Below, piece after piece: positions 1,422 to 48,363 of a stretch of 51,038 bases of DNA. Source of the DNA: a virus (lineage: Duplodnaviria; Heunggongvirae; Uroviricota; Caudoviricetes); the IMG/VR virus record IMGVR_UViG_2778261009_000008, positions 1-51,038 of that record. One strand, written 5' to 3'. Below the pieces are notes generated by a model. The model saw only the letters and a list, made by a program, of their open reading frames with translations, had not been told where the DNA came from and did not search any database. Position 1 is the first letter of the stretch; each line of letters begins with the position of its first letter. Made by a program: the position numbers and the translations under genes.

Positions 1422-3893
1422 TTAAAAATCAGCCTGACTCGGGATCAGTTTTTGCCAGATGGCTGAAACGTATTTTGCCTGGTAACGCGCATCGTGCAGC
1501 GCGTTATGGCGTTCACCTTCGAATGGAATAGTCGTTCTTGCGTCGAAATCCATCACCAGTCCCAGAGCAACCATCGTTCTTACATCGCGATCATTGGTGT
1601 AACGCCACGGGCAGGGGATCCCCTGCCGTTCATATGAACGGCGTAAAATCACGTTGTCGAAAGTTGCACCGTTACCCCAGACCTGAACAAAAAATTCACC
1701 GGAGTTTTCGTCGATAAATTCCCGGAATTGCAGCAGTGCATCATCCAACGGGATTTCATCGGTCAGAATGGCGGATTGTGCTTCGCGTGACTGTTTCAGC
1801 CACCACTTAATGGTGTCCCGATCGATGACCCCGCCTGCGGTTTCCAGATCGATAGTTTTGCTGAATTCTGGCCCCATCTCTCCGGTTGCCGGATCAAAAA
1901 ACTTACCGGCTATAGCGTTTATTGGCGCATCAGGATTTTTTCCCATTGTTTCAAGGTTAATCATCAGATGGTGCCACAACCTGCTGGTGGATGTGGTTTC
2001 ATGATGACCGTTCACTTTAATTAAGGGATTTGCTGTTTCGCCAGTTTTATTATCGCTGGCGTGATACTGATCGCTGACAGTGTTCTCCTTGTGCAGATGT
2101 TCAGTGCCTTCCATTTCCTCCGGATCATTTTCCTGAGCTTCAGCCTGATTCTCTTCATCGAATGTTTCCTGGTAGGTTGCGTTCCCCATCACCGCACCAC
2201 AGTCAGGACAGTTGCCGCCACCGGTCTGACCGCATGCGGTGCAAACTTTTTCCAGTTCCTGTTGCACTGCTGGTTCTGGTTGTTGTTCTTCTGGCCCGTT
2301 TTGTTGCGTATCCGGGCTGTTTTGTTCCGCTTCTGGCTCATTTTGTTTCACGTTGGGCTGATTCTGGTCCTCAGCGTCGCGACTCTGGATCCCTTTCACC
2401 CATTTCGGATCATCCGGGTCGCTAATCCCTTCAACAAATTCACCACGTGATGCAGCAAGCAATTTATCGGCGTCAGGCTGGCTGATATTGGCTGCCTGCA
2501 TCATTTTGTTTACTTCGTCAGCGGTAACTTTTACCGGCTCTGGTTGTTCGGAATCTTCAGTGCTATCCACATTTTGCGGTAAGCCCGTGTATGTGCCATT
2601 TTTTCGGGCAAAATATTCTTCTTTTGAGATTTCGGTACCGCCGGCAGCCAGCGCCCTGTCCAGACCAGAAAGTTTGTTTGCCCTGCCGTATTTTTCCCCG
2701 CCCTTATCGGTAAAGACGAAATAAAATGGTCCTTCACGCTCTACAGATGGTTCAGCTTCCACCAGGATTTCATTTTTTTGAGTATCGGATTCTGCCGTCT
2801 CCACTGGAGCAGTTTGTGCTGCTGGTGACTGGAGAGCATCAGCAGAGCTCTGGTCTGTTTCTTCATGTTCAAACACGCCCTTTGTCGTCAGGTATTCGCT
2901 GATATATTTGTTCAGTGCAACGGGATCTTTGTGAATATCGATCGGACGTTCGCGAACAAGGCCAAAAATAGTCTGATGGTCATAGGCAAGTGCTTCGGGC
3001 TGTTTGCGCATTGATGCTGAGATACGCTTCCAGTCTTCGCGATCCTTGTCGATAACCTCATTTGTCGCCCAGCGATGGATGGTACCGTCAATGTTTCCTG
3101 CATCCACATCACCGGGCCAGAGGGCGCAGGCCAGTTCATTGTCGAGTGTTTTCCATGTCTGTTTGTATTCGCGGCGAACGGCAACAGTGACAGCCCCGGT
3201 TTTTTCAGCAGCGTTTTCAGTGTTCTGTTGGTTTACTCTGGAACGGGCGATATCAACGACAGATATGTATTTCCCGGTTTCCTTGCGTTCACTTTCGCGA
3301 CGTTTTTTCCAGATGCGCATCTCTGCCTGAATTTCGGGCCATTTAGCAGCAGGTTTACATTTATGCTTAACCCACCCGATGGCATGCAGCTTAAGCTCCG
3401 GATACATGGCGTTAACTTCTGGCATCTTCATCAACGCTTCAACGATATGGCCGTCGAATGTTGCCATGTCTTCCTGCAACAATTCCTGAGCGCTAATCAC
3501 CATATCAACAGTGATGTTTTCACATGCGTCGAACTTAACCATGACGGCGTTCTGTACTTCAGGGGCCAGATTGTCAAAAGTGACGTTCATCGGTTCGGAT
3601 TCGGGTTCGACCGGGACAAAGGACGCAGACTCCTCATCCCAGCGGTTTTCCTGCATATATTCGGTATCCCAGGAATCGAGGGCAGGGCGGGGTATACCGG
3701 GTTTATCCTCGCAGACAATAAATTTATAAGCGCAGTCCTGAGCTGCCGGGAATTGCTCCAGAAATTGCCAGTGAAATTTTGCGCGTGCGCGACGCTCATC
3801 ACCGGCTTCAATGGCAGTGGCCACCGCAACAGCGCTATCTTCTTCTATGGCCTGTTCGTCAGGAATAGCAGCGCAAATAAAGATTTTATTCAT
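1422..3893 (-). CDS. Early-left exonuclease (exodeoxyribonuclease VIII-like; C-terminal DnaQ/DEDDh-type 3'-5' exonuclease domain)
   Basis: 823 aa ORF; C-terminal motifs (…[12 protein letters not shown]…, …[13 protein letters not shown]…) resemble DEDDh exonucleases; central CxxC…CxxC zinc-ribbon-like motif (CTACG…CPDCG) and an acidic/Q-rich low-complexity linker; position equals the recombination gene slot of lambdoid phages. Confidence 0.75.
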
Positions 3894-4177: not shown

Positions 4178-4362
4178 TGACGTTCTCCGAAAATACCAAG
4201 TTTAATAAGGGCAATTCGGGAAAGAATGGAATTATCATTGAGCAGATAAGGCTCATATTTCCGCATATTAATGGCATCCTCAGTAAACGCTTTATTACTG
4301 AGCAGAACACCAATATCAAAACAACCTTCAGACGTATTAACGTTTGGTAATAACGTTTCCAT
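4174..4362 (-). CDS. Hypothetical small early-left protein
   Basis: 62 aa ORF abutting the previous one (kil/sieB-like position); composition AT-rich; weak support. Confidence 0.3.
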   Translation of the reverse strand: METLLPNVNTSEGCFDIGVLLSNKAFTEDAINMRKYEPYLLNDNSILSRIALIKLGIFGERQ

Positions 4363-4843
4363 TATCGCGTCCTCAACAATGAATTTTGTGATGCAGCGCC
4401 TGGTGCCTCCAGGTGACGTTAACCAGTTAACAATTAACGTCGGGTTAGTTGATGCTCGTTACGCCAGTAAAAGACCGCCTTACTGCTTTAACTGTTCCGC
4501 GTGCGCATAGCCGCATTCACAGCATCACAAAATTCACTTTAAAAAGGGCGGATATTCATTTCCGCCGAATCACCAGAAAAGTGATAACAGAGGTTGTTGT
4601 GGCTGGGGTGTCACTTAAGCGTATGGTCAACCTGACAACCCGGTGTCCTCAACGGGGGAAGGAATAACCCCGCCATACTTACCGCCGCGCCATTTCGCGG
4701 ATTGCCACAACCGGAAGCGCACGGTCGAAGAAATCTAACCTTATATGCAAAGGAATCTCGCCGTGCGCTTTCGTGTTATGCCCTGACTTTTCAGGGTAAA
4801 TTAACCTGTGGAAACCTGTTTTTACTGGCGCTAATCAGTTAGC

Positions 4844-6465: not shown

Positions 6466-6487
6466 AAGCACGGTGTTCGGGGGGGTT

Positions 6488-7456
6488 ATGAGCAGCAAGC
6501 TTCATGGTCTTGTCTGGGAAGGGTGCGCCTTCACCGGCATGATCTTATCCAGGGTGGCGGTTATGGCCCGTCTTGCAGACTACAGCAATGACGAGGGCGT
6601 GTCATGGCCTGCCATTGAAACTATCCGGCGTCAGATCGGTGCAAGAAGTGAATCCACCGTTAAATCTGCTATTGCAGAACTGGCGAAAGAGGGCTGGCTG
6701 ACGAAGGAAGAGCGTAAGGTCGGTGGGCGTAACGTAAGCAATATCTATCGGCTTAATGTGGAAAAACTCGAAGCAGCTGCAACTGCGGCGCGTGAGGCAT
6801 ATAAACCGAAAAGAAAAATTAGCCCGGCAAAAAATGACCCGTTAACAGTTAACCCGTCAAATATTGCCCCCTCAACGGTTGACCCGTCAAATGTTGATGG
6901 ATCAACGGTTGATAAAAAACTGCGTATTAGGGGGGCGATGATTGACCCCGATCCGTCAGTATTAAAACCTGATCCGTCAGATAAAAGATCTTCTTGTCCG
7001 GACGTTTCACTGCCGGACGAAAAACGATCATCACCAGTTGAGCGATTTCTGGAGAAACACCCAGATGCGCATACCTGGAATGTACCGAAGCGACAGTGGG
7101 GTACCCGTGAGGATGTCGCCTGTGCGCAGTGGATTTGGGGACGGGTTGTGGCGTTGTATGAACAGGCCGCCAGTGATGATGGTGAGGTGTCACGCCCCAG
7201 AGAACCTAACTGGACGACCTGGGCGAATGATGTGCGCATGATGCGTATGCTGGATGGACGTAGTCACCGGCAGATTTGTGAAATGTTTGGGCGTGTCCAG
7301 CGGGATTCGTTCTGGGTAAAAAACATCATGAGTCCGGCAAAACTCAGGGAAAAATGGGATGAACTGGTTATCCGCCTGGGGCGTTCGCCCGCGCAGCGTT
7401 GCGTAAATCACATTTCTGAACCGGACACTGAAATACCGCCGGGATTCAGGGGGTGA
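6488..7456 (+). CDS. Replication initiation protein (lambda O-like)
   Basis: About 322 aa; N-terminal winged-helix-like domain, central repeat-encoding linker containing DNA iterons, C-terminal domain; followed by a DnaC-like gene. Confidence 0.75.
   Translation: MSSKLHGLVWEGCAFTGMILSRVAVMARLADYSNDEGVSWPAIETIRRQIGARSESTVKSAIAELAKEGWLTKEERKVGGRNVSNIYRLNVEKLEAAATAAREAYKPKRKISPAKNDPLTVNPSNIAPSTVDPSNVDGSTVDKKLRIRGAMIDPDPSVLKPDPSDKRSSCPDVSLPDEKRSSPVERFLEKHPDAHTWNVPKRQWGTREDVACAQWIWGRVVALYEQAASDDGEVSRPREPNWTTWANDVRMMRMLDGRSHRQICEMFGRVQRDSFWVKNIMSPAKLREKWDELVIRLGRSPAQRCVNHISEPDTEIPPGFRG
6836..6995. repeat. Iteron-like direct repeats inside the O-like gene followed by an A/T-rich tract (candidate replication origin)
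   Basis: CCCGTCAAAT(A/G)TTG x2, TCAACGGTTGA x2, CCCGTTAACAGTTAA, then GATAAAAAACTGCGTATTA and GATCCGTCAG x2; mirrors the lambda arrangement of ori within O. Confidence 0.5.
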
Positions 7457-7462
7457 TGTGGC

Positions 7463-8209
7463 ATGAAAAACATTGCGGCAGTTGGGGTTCTTGAATGTAT
7501 TCGCAGACTTGCACCACTGGGGGCGGTTCCACCGTACCGGACGGTGGAGGAGTGGCGGGAATGGCAACTTGCTGAAGGACGAAAACGCAGCGAGGAGATT
7601 AACCGCCAGAATCGCCAGTTGCGGGTGGAAAAAATCCTGAATCGTTCGGGCATCCAGCCTCTGCACAGCAAATGCTCGTTTGCAAATTATCAGGTGCAGA
7701 ACGACGGGCAAAAATACGCGCTGAGCTAGGCCAAATCCATAGCTGACGAACTGATGACCGGGTGCACGAATTTTGTGTTCAGCGGTAAAACCGGCACCGG
7801 GAAAAATCACCTTGCAGCGGCGATGGGCAACCGGCTGATGGTGAAGGGGCGCAGCGTGATTATCGTCACCGTGTCTGACGTCATGAGCGTGTTGCATGAC
7901 AGCTACGACAACGGCAAATCCGGGGAAAAATTTTTACAGGAGCTTTGCGGGGTTGATTTGCTGGTCCTGGATGAAATAGGCGTCCAGCGGGAGACGAAAA
8001 ACGAGCAGGTGGTATTGCACCAGATAATTGATCGCCGGACAGCATCACTGTGCAGTGTTGGGATGTTAACAAACCTGAATCATGCCGCAATGAGTACGCT
8101 TCTTGGTGAGAGGATTATGGACCGCATGACCATGAACGGTGGTCGATGGGTGACGTTTAACTGGGATAGCTGGCGTCCAAATGTCAGCAATATGAGGGTT
8201 GTGAAGTAA
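7463..8209 (+). pseudogene. DnaC-like helicase loader interrupted by an in-frame TAG (7727-7729)
   Basis: ORFs 7463-7729 and 7754-8209 are in the same frame and together align along the length of DnaC (…NRSGIQPLHSKCSFANYQ… then Walker A FSGKTGTGKNHLAAA, Walker B LLVLDEIG); the TAG sits where DnaC has a Lys codon. Confidence 0.65.
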
Positions 8210-25933: not shown

Positions 25934-26134
25934 TCATTTCTCGTTATTTGTCATGCTGGCCGGGCGCAGGTGCGTTGCATCTGTTGCCAGCCTTCTCCGG
26001 CAGGCTTCAATAACCCACGCTGAAAAGTTACCGGACCCTTTATGCTCAAGGGCGATGTTGATCTGTTCAATCATGTGATTGGGGAAACGGATATTGCGGG
26101 TTGTGGTTCTGCGGGTCCGGTTTTTCGATGACAT
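25934..26134 (-). CDS. Ribbon-helix-helix (CopG/Arc-like) DNA-binding protein
   Basis: About 66 aa from internal start MSSKNRTRRTT…; RHH-like N-terminal region (…IRFPNHMIEQINIALEHKGSGNFSAWVIEA…); divergent from the HNH gene. Confidence 0.55.
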   Translation of the reverse strand: MSSKNRTRRTTTRNIRFPNHMIEQINIALEHKGSGNFSAWVIEACRRRLATDATHLRPASMTNNEK

Positions 26135-26175
26135 ATTTATTTCCTTTACTGATTGCCATATGACGGGGATTTTAC

Positions 26176-26541
26176 ATGGCTGAGCTTCGTACACTCCAGA
26201 GCAGAATCAAAACACTGAATACCCGACGGGTGAATATTCTGAAGGGGGAACAGCGTCGTGTCAGTGGCAGTGCACGTGTTTCCCTCAAGCGTCATATCTG
26301 GCTCAGGGACGCCGGGCAGTGCTGTATCTGTGGTCGTGTGGTTGACCTCTGTGACAGTGAACTCGATCACCGAATTGCACTTCAGTTCGGTGGTGGTAAT
26401 GAGGAGACGAATCTCTGGACGCTCTGTACCGAATGCCATCGACAAAAGTCTGCTCGTGAAGCGGCGGGTGGTATGCCGGACCCGACGTTGCCGGAGGTGT
26501 CCGGAGGTAGTGGCACAGCGGACGACATCATCGGACTGTAA
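26176..26541 (+). CDS. HNH endonuclease (terminase-associated)
   Basis: 121 aa; HNH motif …CCICGRVVDLCDSELDHRIALQFGGGNEETNLWTLCTECHRQK…; lies just upstream of the terminase genes. Confidence 0.8.
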   Translation: MAELRTLQSRIKTLNTRRVNILKGEQRRVSGSARVSLKRHIWLRDAGQCCICGRVVDLCDSELDHRIALQFGGGNEETNLWTLCTECHRQKSAREAAGGMPDPTLPEVSGGSGTADDIIGL

Positions 26542-26631
26542 CCCGACCGGGGGGGTATCATTCGGCGTAAAAAACGATCGCTCCGGACACCGCGCCCCCT
26601 CTCACGCAGAGAAAAAATTCCCGTTTCAGGG

Positions 26632-26760
26632 CAGTTAACATGTTAACTGGCTGCCCGGGCATTTTTGCGGTTTTTATCTTTATTATTCAGTTTGTTGTGC
26701 GGAAAAAATGTTAACTGGCTTTTTCAGCAAATGTTAACCAGGCAGCAGTTAACATTTGCG
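26632..26760. repeat. ATGTTAAC repeat cluster (candidate cos/terminase-binding region)
   Basis: Perfect 14-bp palindrome GTTAACATGTTAAC (26635-26648) plus AATGTTAACTGG, AATGTTAACCAGG and CAGTTAACATTTG within 130 bp between the HNH and terminase small-subunit genes. Confidence 0.45.
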
Positions 26761-26829
26761 GCATGAGACGCCGGGAAAAATGGGCTGAACCATACCCGGC
26801 TGAGTGCGTTCTGGACCCGGGAGGAGGCT

Positions 26830-27393
26830 GTGCTGACAACGCAAAAACGAAAATTTGCGCTGGCGCTCATGTCCGGGAAAAACAAAACAGCGTCAGCCAT
26901 TGCCGCCGGTTATTCGGCGAAGACCGCCAGGGTTAAAGGCTCGCAGCTGGCAAAAGATCCGGAGGTGCTTGCGTTTATAGCCCGTAAACAATGCGAGACG
27001 GTGGAGGTGGATGAGGTTCCTGTTTACCGGCAGAAAAAATCAGAGCAGGAGGATAAAACCCGTCGCCGTGAGGCGGCTGCAATACCACAGCCGGACGAAA
27101 ACAATCCGGAGATGCCACCGTCCGCGGTGATGTCTCCTGGTATTGAATATATGGAGGATGGTCTTCCCGATCCGGTGAAAGCCATGGGGCGGATCCTGGT
27201 GGAAAACCTCTGCATTGATCCGAAACTGGCACTGGATGCGGCCTGGCGTCTGGCGCAGTTCACGCACCATAAAAAAGGGGATACCGGGAAAAAATCGGCA
27301 AAAGGTGATGCCGCGAAAAAAGCGGCTAACCGTTTTGCGGTGCCACCGCCACCCCGACTGGTGGTGAATAACGATAATGAGGGCAACGGATGA
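26830..27393 (+). CDS. Terminase small subunit
   Basis: 187 aa (GTG start after SD GAGGAGG); N-terminal HTH-like segment (…KNKTASAIAAGYSAKTARVKGSQL…); directly upstream of and overlapping the large subunit. Confidence 0.8.
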   Translation: MLTTQKRKFALALMSGKNKTASAIAAGYSAKTARVKGSQLAKDPEVLAFIARKQCETVEVDEVPVYRQKKSEQEDKTRRREAAAIPQPDENNPEMPPSAVMSPGIEYMEDGLPDPVKAMGRILVENLCIDPKLALDAAWRLAQFTHHKKGDTGKKSAKGDAAKKAANRFAVPPPPRLVVNNDNEGNG

Positions 27394-46635: not shown

Positions 46636-48363
46636 ATGACAGTCAGAATATCGGGTGTGCTGAAGGATGGTACGGGAAAAGCGGTACCGGGATGCACGAT
46701 AGAGCTGAAAGCGCGCCGCACAACGGAGACGGTGATTGTCACCACGGTGGCGTATGGTCAGCCGGGGGAAACCGGCAGTTACAGTATGGATGTTGAGCCG
46801 GGGTTGTACCGGGTGACGCTGAACACGGAAGGGTACGCGCCGTCATATGTGGGTGACATTCTGGTGAAGGCGGATTCTGCACCGGGAACGCTGAATAAAT
46901 TTCTGATGGACCTGGAGGACGCACAGTATTACCCGAAAGCCCTTGCAGAGCTGGAAGCGGTGGCAGCGGAAATCCTGAAACGTGCAGAAGCGTCAGCGGC
47001 CAGTGCGGAGGAGGCAAAAAAACGGGCAGAGAATGCGCGGGGACCGAAGGGGGATAAGGGGGACACCGGGCCGCAGGGTATTCCCGGGCCAAAAGGCGAT
47101 ACCGGCGAGCGGGGGCCAAAGGGTGAGCGTGGTGAGACAGGACCACAGGGGCTTCAGGGTGTGAAAGGTGAACGGGGAGAGAAGGGCGAAAAAGGCGAGC
47201 CGGGAGGGCCGGATGCGACGACGGCACAGAAGGGAATTGTGCAGTTAAGCAGCACAACGGACAGTGATGATGAAACGAAGGCAGCCACCCCGAAAGCGGT
47301 GAAAGCGGCAATGGACAAAGCGGACGGATGCCTGGAGAAAGCGAAAAACGGTGACGATATCCCGGATAAGGTGAAGTTTCTGAACACCGTGGGAGCAGCC
47401 AGAGTATACGGGCGGGACATTCATACGGGGGCCGGTGAATGGACCACGAGTGAGTTTGTCGCCTGGCTGAAAGAAAAAGGGGCATTTGACCAGCCTTACT
47501 GGATGATGAAGGCATCACTGCCTGCGGTAATGAATAAAGTCATCACGGATGTCGGACCGGGAAAACTCAATCTGGGTGGCTGCGCCATTGAGGTGATGGG
47601 GACGTATAACGCAGCCATAGTCCGGGTCACCATTGGCGAATACGGTGCAACGGGGTTTATTAATGGCACGGTCTGTACCTGTACGGTTTACGGCGACACA
47701 CAGTATTTCCACTGGCGGGTGGATTACAGCACAAAAAACAAACCGGATACGGTCAGCCAGCGGGATGCCAGCACGACGCAGAAAGGTGTGGTGCAGTTAA
47801 GCAGTGATACTGGCAGTAATGACGAAACAAAGGCAGCCACGCCGAAGGCCGTGAAGGCGGCAATGGATGTGGCAAATGAAGCGAAAACAAAGGCAGAAGA
47901 GGCTGCAGCAGGAGGTGGTGTTCCCGGTCCGAAAGGAGAGAAAGGTGACCCCGGAGCACAGGGTCCGAAAGGTGAAACGGGAGCAACAGGCCCCGCTGGT
48001 CCGCGGGGAGCGCAGGGACCGAAAGGGGAGAAAGGAGACCCCGGTCCCAGAGGTGAGCGTGGAGAAACCGGGCCGATGGGGCCGCCCGGGGCATCAGACG
48101 GGAAGAGCCGGGTTGTGGGTATCAGGCTGGGTAATAAACAGACTTATGCGCCGCAAACAGACAGCACTACATGGGCAGTGGATTTGGATATTGGTGCGAT
48201 GATTACGGGGATTGGCGGTTACAACGACGGAAACAAAACCCTTATTGACAGGGTATCTTACAGGCCGCTTCAGGTGACATTTGATGGTTCTCAGTGGCGT
48301 ACAGTCAGCGTGGGTGAGTATGTGTCGTCAGGAGCTTCGGGGTTTGAGTATTTTCCATTATAA
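46636..48363 (+). CDS. stf: Side tail fibre protein (Stf-like) with collagen-like Gly-X-Y repeats
   Basis: 575 aa; N-terminus [15 protein letters not shown]… parallels lambda Stf; two fibre-repeat motifs (QKG.VQLSS…[15 protein letters not shown]) and two Gly-X-Y tracts. Confidence 0.85.

Follow-up and report, generated by a model that had tools for sequence, protein, structure and literature searches.

Introduction

The cosB subsite of phage lambda consists of a series of sites, R3-I1-R2-R1, for the small terminase subunit gpNu1, and HK97 is, to our knowledge, the only cos system of the HNH type that has been characterized structurally. Lambda cos is described in PMC4669245 in terms of the subsites cosQ, cosN and cosB, and in HK97 the small terminase (TerS) binds positions +15 to +29 of the left end, a stretch that includes an A-tract (PMC11331095). 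In SPP1, TerS touches the DNA at multiple points that flank the cut (PMC9611059). Among chromosomal islands, SaPIbov5 carries the cos site of its helper (PMC5052747). For phage Lys8385Vzw, induced virions analysed with PhageTerm gave 3′ cohesive ends, with the cos sequence CGCCCCCCCT at the end of the record (PMC7946995).

The window analysed here, i.e. the whole 51,038-nucleotide stretch of IMG/VR record IMGVR_UViG_2778261009_000008, is a BP-4795/Marienburgvirus-type lambdoid prophage. Its HNH/terS region is 93–98% identical to that of BP-4795, phage 2851, the Stx2a_WGPS phages and many Stx1a/Stx2c prophages, and a 306-bp intergenic query is found at 3023 places in 1288 of 5426 complete Escherichia coli genomes, often in several copies each. 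Most Stx1a/Stx2c phages and some Stx2a phages of this head type carry the cos region, and the gene order HNH-cos-terS-terL recurs in 94 phage records and in relatives from about 15 genera.

The likeness to lambda cosB is one of layout. An array of about 120–150 bp lies between cosN and terS, a few tens of base pairs inside the left end; one word recurs in it in direct and inverted orientation, and an A/T-rich spacer that may be bent follows the proximal site. The distance from the nick to the start of terS is ∼200–230 bp in both systems (lambda nu1 at 191, window terS at +230). The window TerS, however, has a Terminase_2/SF6-type helix-turn-helix (HTH) domain where gpNu1 has a winged helix, the expected overhang is 10 nt and 3′ whereas that of lambda is 12 nt and 5′, and an HNH protein is part of the window machine. 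Also in contrast to lambda cosB, the search here gave no convincing IHF site, and the proximal palindrome of the array derives from a terS start codon. The array would work like cosB and is not homologous to it. With HK97 the locus shares the order HNH gene-cos-terS-terL, an expected 10-nt 3′ overhang, TerL homology and a conserved A-tract inside the left end (PMC11331095), but gp1 of HK97 reads a single 15-bp site by means of an Arg clamp and its channel, with terS at +50, whereas the window has five words over 120 bp and a TerS of the HTH type. The modelled TerS DNA-binding domain has the fold of SPP1/SF6 G1P (TM 0.81–0.84), although those phages are headful (pac) packagers of Bacillus, whereas the window family has fixed cohesive ends (PMC7946995). 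The locus is thus a cos of the HNH/HK97-like 3′-overhang class combined with an SF6-type TerS and a lambda-like multi-site array. Comparison with relatives and satellites makes it likely that the ATGTTAAC cluster forms a cosB-like part of cos whose words are bound by TerS.

Results

Packaging genes and the small terminase

The features of the region are listed below in window numbering; positions with a plus sign count from the expected left chromosome end at 26601.

25934–26194, minus strand: DUF3950 gene, ribbon-helix-helix (RHH)-like product; adjoins the HNH gene
26176–26541, plus strand: HNH endonuclease gene (PF01844, E 4.6e-7), packaging accessory nuclease; ends 50 bp before the cleavage site
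26549–26555, plus strand: G-run, G7 here and 6–13 G in relatives; conserved island upstream of cosN
26585–26600, plus strand: cosN, GGACAC + CGCGCCCCCT; the 10-mer corresponds to the published 10-nt 3′ cohesive end
26601–26627, plus strand: +1 to +27 block CTCACGCAGAGAAAAAATTCCCGTTTC with A-tract; kept in both TerS classes and in satellites
26632–26649, no strand: site pair A/B, 18-bp palindrome CAGTTAACATGTTAACTG; GTTAAC hexamers at +34 and +42
26650–26704, no strand: A/B-to-C spacer, 55 bp, 58% A+T; conserved in length, not in sequence
26706–26715, plus strand: site C, AAATGTTAAC; its hexamer lies at +110, and the site does not vary among phage-type variants or satellites
26729–26738, plus strand: site D, AAATGTTAAC, hexamer at +133
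26748–26757, minus strand: site E, AAATGTTAAC, hexamer at +148; 12-nt inverted repeat with site D
26758–26829, plus strand: terS leader, lineage-specific, with a new ribosome-binding site GGAGGAGG at 26820–27; not shared with satellites
26830–27393, plus strand: terS, 187 aa, GTG start, starts at +230; Pfam Terminase_2 (PF03592)
27390–29051, plus strand: terL, 553 aa; PF03354 and PF20441; homologue of HK97 gp2

Terminase_2 is the sole Pfam family matched by the window TerS (residues 2–57, E 2e-8), so a gpNu1-type assignment finds no support in Pfam; PDB profile matches were obtained as well. In the AlphaFold model residues 1–55 form four helices at pLDDT > 90, and Foldseek returns as best matches 4zc3 and 2cmp, the DNA-binding domain of the SF6 small terminase (TM 0.84/0.81, rmsd 1.6–2.4 Å). 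Residues 1–55 are accordingly modelled with confidence as an HTH DNA-binding domain of the SF6/SPP1 G1P type, and the model continues after residue 55 with a disordered linker and then C-terminal helices. A BLASTP comparison of HK97 gp1 with the window TerS gave no similarity, and TerL aligned to HK97 gp2 with 23% identity over 489 aa (E 2e-11). Of the components of an HNH/HK97-like module, the locus has the HNH gene directly upstream of cos/terS/terL and a gp2-type TerL, and its TerS is not of the gp1 type; the association of an HK97-like TerL and an HNH protein with another TerS family makes this a hybrid module.

The expected cleavage site and left end

The TerS of Lys8385Vzw is 94.7% identical to that of the window. 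Its GenBank record ends in ...GGACACCGCCCCCCCT and starts with CTCACGCAGAG (at greater length, CTCACGCAGAGAAAAAATT), begins 229 bp before terS, and its end and start align exactly to window positions 26600/26601. The window counterpart of the published 10-mer is CGCGCCCCCT at 26591–26600, which differs by one substitution from CGCCCCCCCT; both versions are common among family members, and the GGACAC-cosN block is invariant across 42 unique E. coli-type sequences except for G/C at position 4. By alignment to this relative with mapped ends, the virion left end of the window prophage would be 26601. The ends of Lys8385Vzw thereby place the repeats at +34 to +153. With the cut on one side and terS (+230) on the other, they occupy the position of a cosB. 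The sequence-only reading had proposed, as one of two possibilities, that the repeat interval is the cos/terminase-recognition region of an HNH-dependent cohesive-end phage; the Lys8385Vzw ends and the comparative evidence bear out the assignment to cos, but the cut site itself falls outside that interval, ∼33 bp upstream, and the repeats appear to be the accessory, cosB-like part and not the cut. The 10-nt end has already been published, whereas the repeat array and satellites sharing this cos were not found described: literature searches returned no paper for the palindrome GTTAACATGTTAAC, none on the array or on satellites sharing it, and only unrelated papers for the 10-mer CGCGCCCCCT.

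Two further elements of the region are conserved. The G-run is kept in E. coli phages, satellites and other genera while its flanks diverge, and the +1 to +27 block has one mismatch to the satellites, no polymorphism among the phage-type variants and is conserved across genera. The full cos region would extend from about 26549 to 26757, and site E appears to be its right boundary, where the similarity between phage and satellites (see below) stops.

In the ‘PPompW’ prophages (L167; LC567818/22/24/28 etc.), the IS110-family element ISEc20 is inserted within the cos G-run. The HNH and DUF3950 genes are missing upstream of cos in these prophages, and for that reason they can probably not cut their own cos. 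An 11-nt perfect inverted repeat, GGTGTCCGGAG/CTCCGGACACC (26496–26506 and 26581–26591), brackets the HNH stop codon and the G-run of the window with its right arm abutting cosN; it was rejected as a conserved pairing, as the right arm varies (CTTTGG) in relatives with no compensating change. The SfI/SfV cos site (TGCCCGCCCC) was likewise set aside and belongs to a different module.

The repeat array

Exact matches to ATGTTAAC on the two strands lie at 26634–26641 (−), 26640–26647 (+), 26708–26715 (+), 26731–26738 (+) and 26748–26755 (−), i.e. five of the six copies in the 51-kb window are packed into 122 bp, the sixth (position 8063) being unrelated to the cluster. The total of six compares with an expectation of 1.21 ± 1.23 from 100 dinucleotide-preserving shuffles of the window, none of which reached six. 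The first two copies overlap to form the perfect 14-bp palindrome GTTAACATGTTAAC, which extends to a perfect 18-bp palindrome, and the last two make up a perfect inverted repeat of 12 nt, GCAAATGTTAAC/GTTAACATTTGC, whose arms stand 9 nt apart; the extended repeat word reads A(A/C)ATGTTAAC. The cluster had previously been described as four copies of the core in direct and inverted orientation, including a perfect 14-bp palindrome, in a gap of about 290 bp between the HNH and terS genes. The cluster is real, the palindrome is present, both orientations occur (three plus-strand and two minus-strand matches) and the gap measures 288 bp with the flanking genes as named; only the number of copies changes, to five, if the palindrome halves are counted apart.

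T-tracts start at 26662, 26671, 26679 and 26691 in the A/B-to-C spacer, about 9–12 bp from one another, and may possibly give the DNA an intrinsic bend. Matches to the IHF consensus in the cos region are all of the two-mismatch kind, for which 6.6 per kb are expected by chance. The hexamer GTTAAC on its own is over-represented across the whole window (22 against 8 expected). Iteron-like direct repeats GTTAACCCGTCAAAT / GTTGACCCGTCAAAT are present at 6841–6880 within a 327-aa ORF (6473–7456), look like a lambdoid replication origin in an O-like gene and make up part of the general GTTAAC excess of the window; a close GTTAAC pair, GTTAACCAGTTAAC then AATTAACG, lies at 4418–4431 in a short ORF region (4271–4510). 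As cos words the pairs at 4418/4426 and 6841/6848 were rejected, as they are without the ATG/AA flank and stand in other contexts.

Satellites with the array but no terS

An island of E. coli 042 (L087/L088; L088 9313–18700, NZ_CP042934.2 about 939.3–948.7 kb) occupies 9.5 kb between cspD/yljB and clpS and encodes an integrase, an HTH regulator, YlcI/YnfO, an Icd-like protein, DUF4222, a RepA helicase, a ClpP-protease/capsid fusion and a 93-aa ORF; terS, terL and HNH are all absent from its gene content. At its end the island has a cos region with about 80% identity to window positions 26585–26757, including all five repeats. IMG/VR contig L148 holds a second TerS-less satellite element, whose cos region is likewise about 80% identical to that of the window, and the 042-type variant of cos occurs in about 50–60 complete E. 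coli genomes. Between phage and satellites the stretch from GGACACC through cosN to +27 is identical except for one base, and the four repeat islands are identical. In the comparison of satellite with window, 0 of 38 positions mismatch within the 8-bp cores, against 31–33 of 91 (34–36%) outside them (Fisher P = 1–3e-6), and among 40 unique phage-type variants none of the 38 core columns is polymorphic as opposed to 17 of 91 outside (P = 0.0016). Since the cores were defined from the window repeats and not from conservation, this test is not circular.

The geometry of the array is retained along with its words. The hexamers of the 042 island lie at +34, +42, +110, +134 and +149, each within 1 bp of those in the window, and the distance from site B to site C is 68 bp in both phage and satellite despite the divergence of the spacer sequence. 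The similarity ends right after the last repeat, and neither terS nor any island gene follows; as the satellites keep the array with no terS or other gene downstream, coding, translational and promoter roles cannot explain its conservation. On this comparative evidence the array behaves as belonging to the packaging signal by which a satellite without TerS has to present itself, in cis, to its helper, and the words appear to be required in cis and conserved independently of the neighbouring genes. BLASTP found no similarity between the 042 capsid fusion and the window major capsid protein, nor between 042 YlcI/YnfO and the window DUF3950.

Control of terS expression by the repeats, as a promoter/operator or as a translational leader element, would be in keeping with the ancestral site, which overlaps the terS start codon, and with a weak σ70-like match on the minus strand that draws on two of the copies. 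That match (9/12) is, however, the sole promoter-like match in the cluster and lies on the wrong (minus) strand, 72 bp separate the end of the array from the ribosome-binding site, in a leader that the satellites do not share, and the satellites keep the array without terS or a gene of their own downstream, which together leave this role highly improbable. A terminator scan found none, and an Rfam scan of 26300–27000 gave nothing meaningful (best match E 0.85).

The second proposal of the sequence-only reading was that the repeats are operators of the adjacent RHH protein, here DUF3950. In that role the protein would regulate terS/late genes or cos usage. Short words in direct and inverted repetition are the usual targets of RHH proteins such as omega, MetJ and Arc, a habit that the array fits, and the DUF3950 gene precedes HNH in almost every five-copy phage locus while being absent from the one-copy relatives; this co-occurrence is, however, confounded by shared ancestry (one lineage) and cannot alone decide. 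In lambda, an unannotated DUF3950/RHH ORF (MSTKNRTRRTTTRNIRFPNQMIEQINIALEQKGSGNFSAWVIEACRRRL...) lies at 48148–48303 on the minus strand (L209, NC_001416), about 200 bp from the right end, so that lambdoid phages whose terminases differ considerably have this gene immediately before cos. The lambda ORF is 88.5% identical over residues 21–72 and has the identical TTTRNIRFPN strand, predicted to read DNA, yet ATGTTAAC is found zero times in the 48.5 kb of lambda. DUF3950 varies down to 65% identity while the cores are invariant, the satellites keep five cores but encode no similar protein, and the palindrome and the Pantoea-type repeats described below occur in elements that have no DUF3950. The sites also lie > 430 bp from the RHH start codon, with the complete HNH gene in between, and the promoter-like site of the RHH gene at 26236–26264 has no copy in its vicinity. 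With the protein present where the motif is absent (lambda) and the motif present where the protein is absent (satellites), the operator proposal is disfavoured and in our judgement very unlikely.

Co-variation of the repeat word with TerS

A second group of TerS proteins (P0064, P0054, P0107 and P0120) is 45–48% identical to that of the window and reads KG(W/C)QL in the third helix where the window has KGSQL, with PTE at the start of the second helix. Three of the four are encoded in satellite-like islands that have their own TerS and a capsid-protein homologue, without TerL or HNH, and the fourth in a Hafnia phage with HNH and TerL. PICI-like islands with their own Terminase_2 TerS of the KG(W/C)QL kind and a capsid-protein homologue were seen at L213 1446–9944 and on L214, L215/L216 and L219/L220. 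At the KG(W/C)QL loci the G-run, GGACACC, a cosN-like 10-mer and the A-tract are kept, whereas the word AAAGTTACAC takes the place of AAATGTTAAC, directly upstream of terS. In L213 this word lies at +33 and +45; in L215 (TerS P0054) it lies at +33, +123, +179 and +192, an incomplete copy (GTAAC) stands in inverted orientation at +133, and terS begins at +229. L215 would thus represent the architecture of the window written with another word, as an independent array. In Hafnia and Salmonella elements a single AAAAGTTACAC is present at about +30, and some 27 bp separate it from the start of terS.

Over all loci compared, the 73 unique KGSQL sequences have GTTAAC-type words at +15 to +70 and the four unique KG(W/C)QL sequences have GTTACAC, without exception. 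This co-variation is essentially one evolutionary switch between two TerS clades, and is not to be counted as many independent events. The parts that TerL and HNH would read stay constant and the part that TerS would read changes with TerS, a pattern that recognition by TerS predicts and that would be hard to reconcile with a host factor.

These observations bear on whether the repeats could instead be cis-acting accessory sites of cos that are bound by a protein other than TerS, be it HNH, TerL or an architectural protein of the host (IHF/Fis/H-NS-like) giving the cos region its shape. The conserved footprint and geometry point to a cis function and do not name a protein, the palindrome itself is a two-mismatch match to the IHF consensus, and lambda cosB uses IHF, going by the reference list of PMC9611059. 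IHF-like matches are nevertheless at the chance level, a host factor would not need a different word in the same host, and the word changes with the class of TerS while cosN and its flanks, the expected targets of TerL and HNH, stay the same. The satellites with the other word are, moreover, those that bring only their own TerS and neither TerL nor HNH, and we therefore regard a binder other than TerS as unlikely.

Binding by TerS would also allow a simple, swappable specificity code in this very widespread enterobacterial packaging module, with the window array as one of its states; we put this forward tentatively and with rather less confidence than the cosB-like role itself. A single position of the helix by which TerS recognizes DNA would match the word (GTTAAC for KGSQL, GTTACAC for KG(W/C)QL) at a fixed +33/34 from a shared cosN, and two satellite families would exploit the code, one by copying the helper array and the other by bringing its own TerS and a re-worded array and thereby hijacking TerL, HNH and capsids of Shiga-toxin-converting phages. 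The islands resemble in this respect SaPIbov5, with its helper cos and capsid homologue Ccm, and the TerS-encoding SaPIs, in that they have either the helper cos (042 and L148) or their own TerS and a capsid homologue (L213–L216 and L219/220) (PMC5052747, PMC8569155). As in SaPIs, the cos or the TerS/capsid genes adjoin replication and integration genes; unlike SaPIs, the E. coli/Salmonella elements would be aimed at a packaging module of the Stx-phage type.

Proposed origin of the array

TerS homologues from about 15 other enterobacterial genera are 33–49% identical to that of the window, and the HNH-terS gap of these relatives is only about 100 bp and strongly conserved, reading G-run ... 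GGACACCGCGCCCCCT CTCACGCACAGAAAAAATTCCCCTCTGGAGGGTGTAAAC ATGTTAAC AGCGCAGAAG. Their ATGTTAAC is the terS start codon followed by Leu-Thr, and GTAAAC, GTTAAC or ATTAAC precedes it to give a near-palindrome. At the position of the palindrome the relatives have GGAGGG-TGTAAAC-ATGTTAAC-AGCGCAGAAG, i.e. the ribosome-binding site and the terS start; the window palindrome aligns to this start, with the ribosome-binding site decayed to TCAGGG. In this alignment the window palindrome clearly appears as a relic of an ancestral terS start (ATG TTA AC). The array would then have originated from a single ancestral site, the proximal palindrome, overlapping the terS start codon; about 190 bp with three more copies would have been added in the E. 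coli lineage, and terS would have gained a leader and a ribosome-binding site that are both new, together with the start GTG CTG AC, an order of events that is read from the present-day sequences.

This derivation raises the possibility that the repeats are neutral relics of a duplicated terS 5′ end (ATG TTA AC) with no present function, as the proximal copy is clearly such a start with a decayed ribosome-binding site and the extra copies look like re-used pieces of the same word. Neutral decay is, however, difficult to square with 0 of 38 core changes against about 35% around them and no polymorphic core in 40 variants, with the conserved spacing, or with the independent array of a different word in L215, and the 24-codon ORF from the relic ATG is not conserved. 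The relic ATG (26640) was followed for a conserved 24-codon reading frame, which was not found; the satellite version stops after four codons. We therefore give a functionless array very little credence and retain the cosB-like role.

In most relatives the single site overlaps the terS start, and there coding or translation could explain its conservation; that most relatives manage with a single site also indicates that multiplicity is not essential to the family. In a Pantoea-type lineage (L023/L123/L126), in which terS starts with ATGCTGAC, two or three separate GTTAACCC repeats lie between cosN and terS, and over the family a GTTAAC-type word near +30 to +45 is retained whether or not coding needs it. 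The site, which stands apart from the start of terS in the Hafnia and Salmonella elements too, would thus be tied to cosN and not to that start codon. Words of this kind are placed differently in Morganella morganii (L025): the end of the HNH gene, upstream of the G-run and hence on the other side of cosN, contains GTTAAC, GTTAAT twice and ATGTTAAC once, with only one ATTAAC on the terS side.

Discussion

From the satellite copies, the conserved geometry and the change of word with the class of TerS, we infer TerS rather than another factor as the binder of the repeats. A scheme of packaging initiation may be put together on this basis. TerL and the HNH protein would nick at CGCGCCCCCT (26591–26600) to leave 10-nt 3′ overhangs, with the packaged chromosome starting at 26601. 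The upstream G-run/GGACACC and the +1 to +27 A-tract block would be candidate contacts for TerL/HNH, or a sequence-independent contact of TerS as in HK97; by that analogy the A-tract block could even be the main TerS site. TerS, as one oligomer or more, would occupy the pair at +34/+42 and the trio at +110/+133/+148 with several of its N-terminal HTH domains, and the 55-bp spacer probably lets the DNA bend so that both groups of sites contact the same assembly. Such an arrangement would be comparable to R3-I1-R2-R1 in lambda cosB and to the several contacts of SPP1 TerS (PMC9611059). TerS docked in this manner would anchor the terminase beside cosN for the initial cut and for the handover of the left end to the prohead. 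Of this scheme, the data show the anatomy of the locus, the ends in a close relative, the selective conservation of the cores, their geometry, the co-variation of word and TerS and the fold of the TerS N-domain; the binding of TerS, the bending of the DNA and the stoichiometry are what we infer.

The choice of DNA for packaging in these phages had previously been described only as a 10-nt end. The definition of cos given here, with its probable TerS sites, would explain which chromosomal islands can ride on Stx phages, and the full region would be a minimal cassette for transduction or cosmid-like tools. The TerS/word variants are a natural pair with which the reading of repeated sites by a small terminase of the HTH type could be tested, a question still called unresolved in the field (PMC9611059). 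If the specificity code is true, it would provide a testable handle both on the reading of DNA by TerS and on the elements that interfere with the spread of Stx phages.
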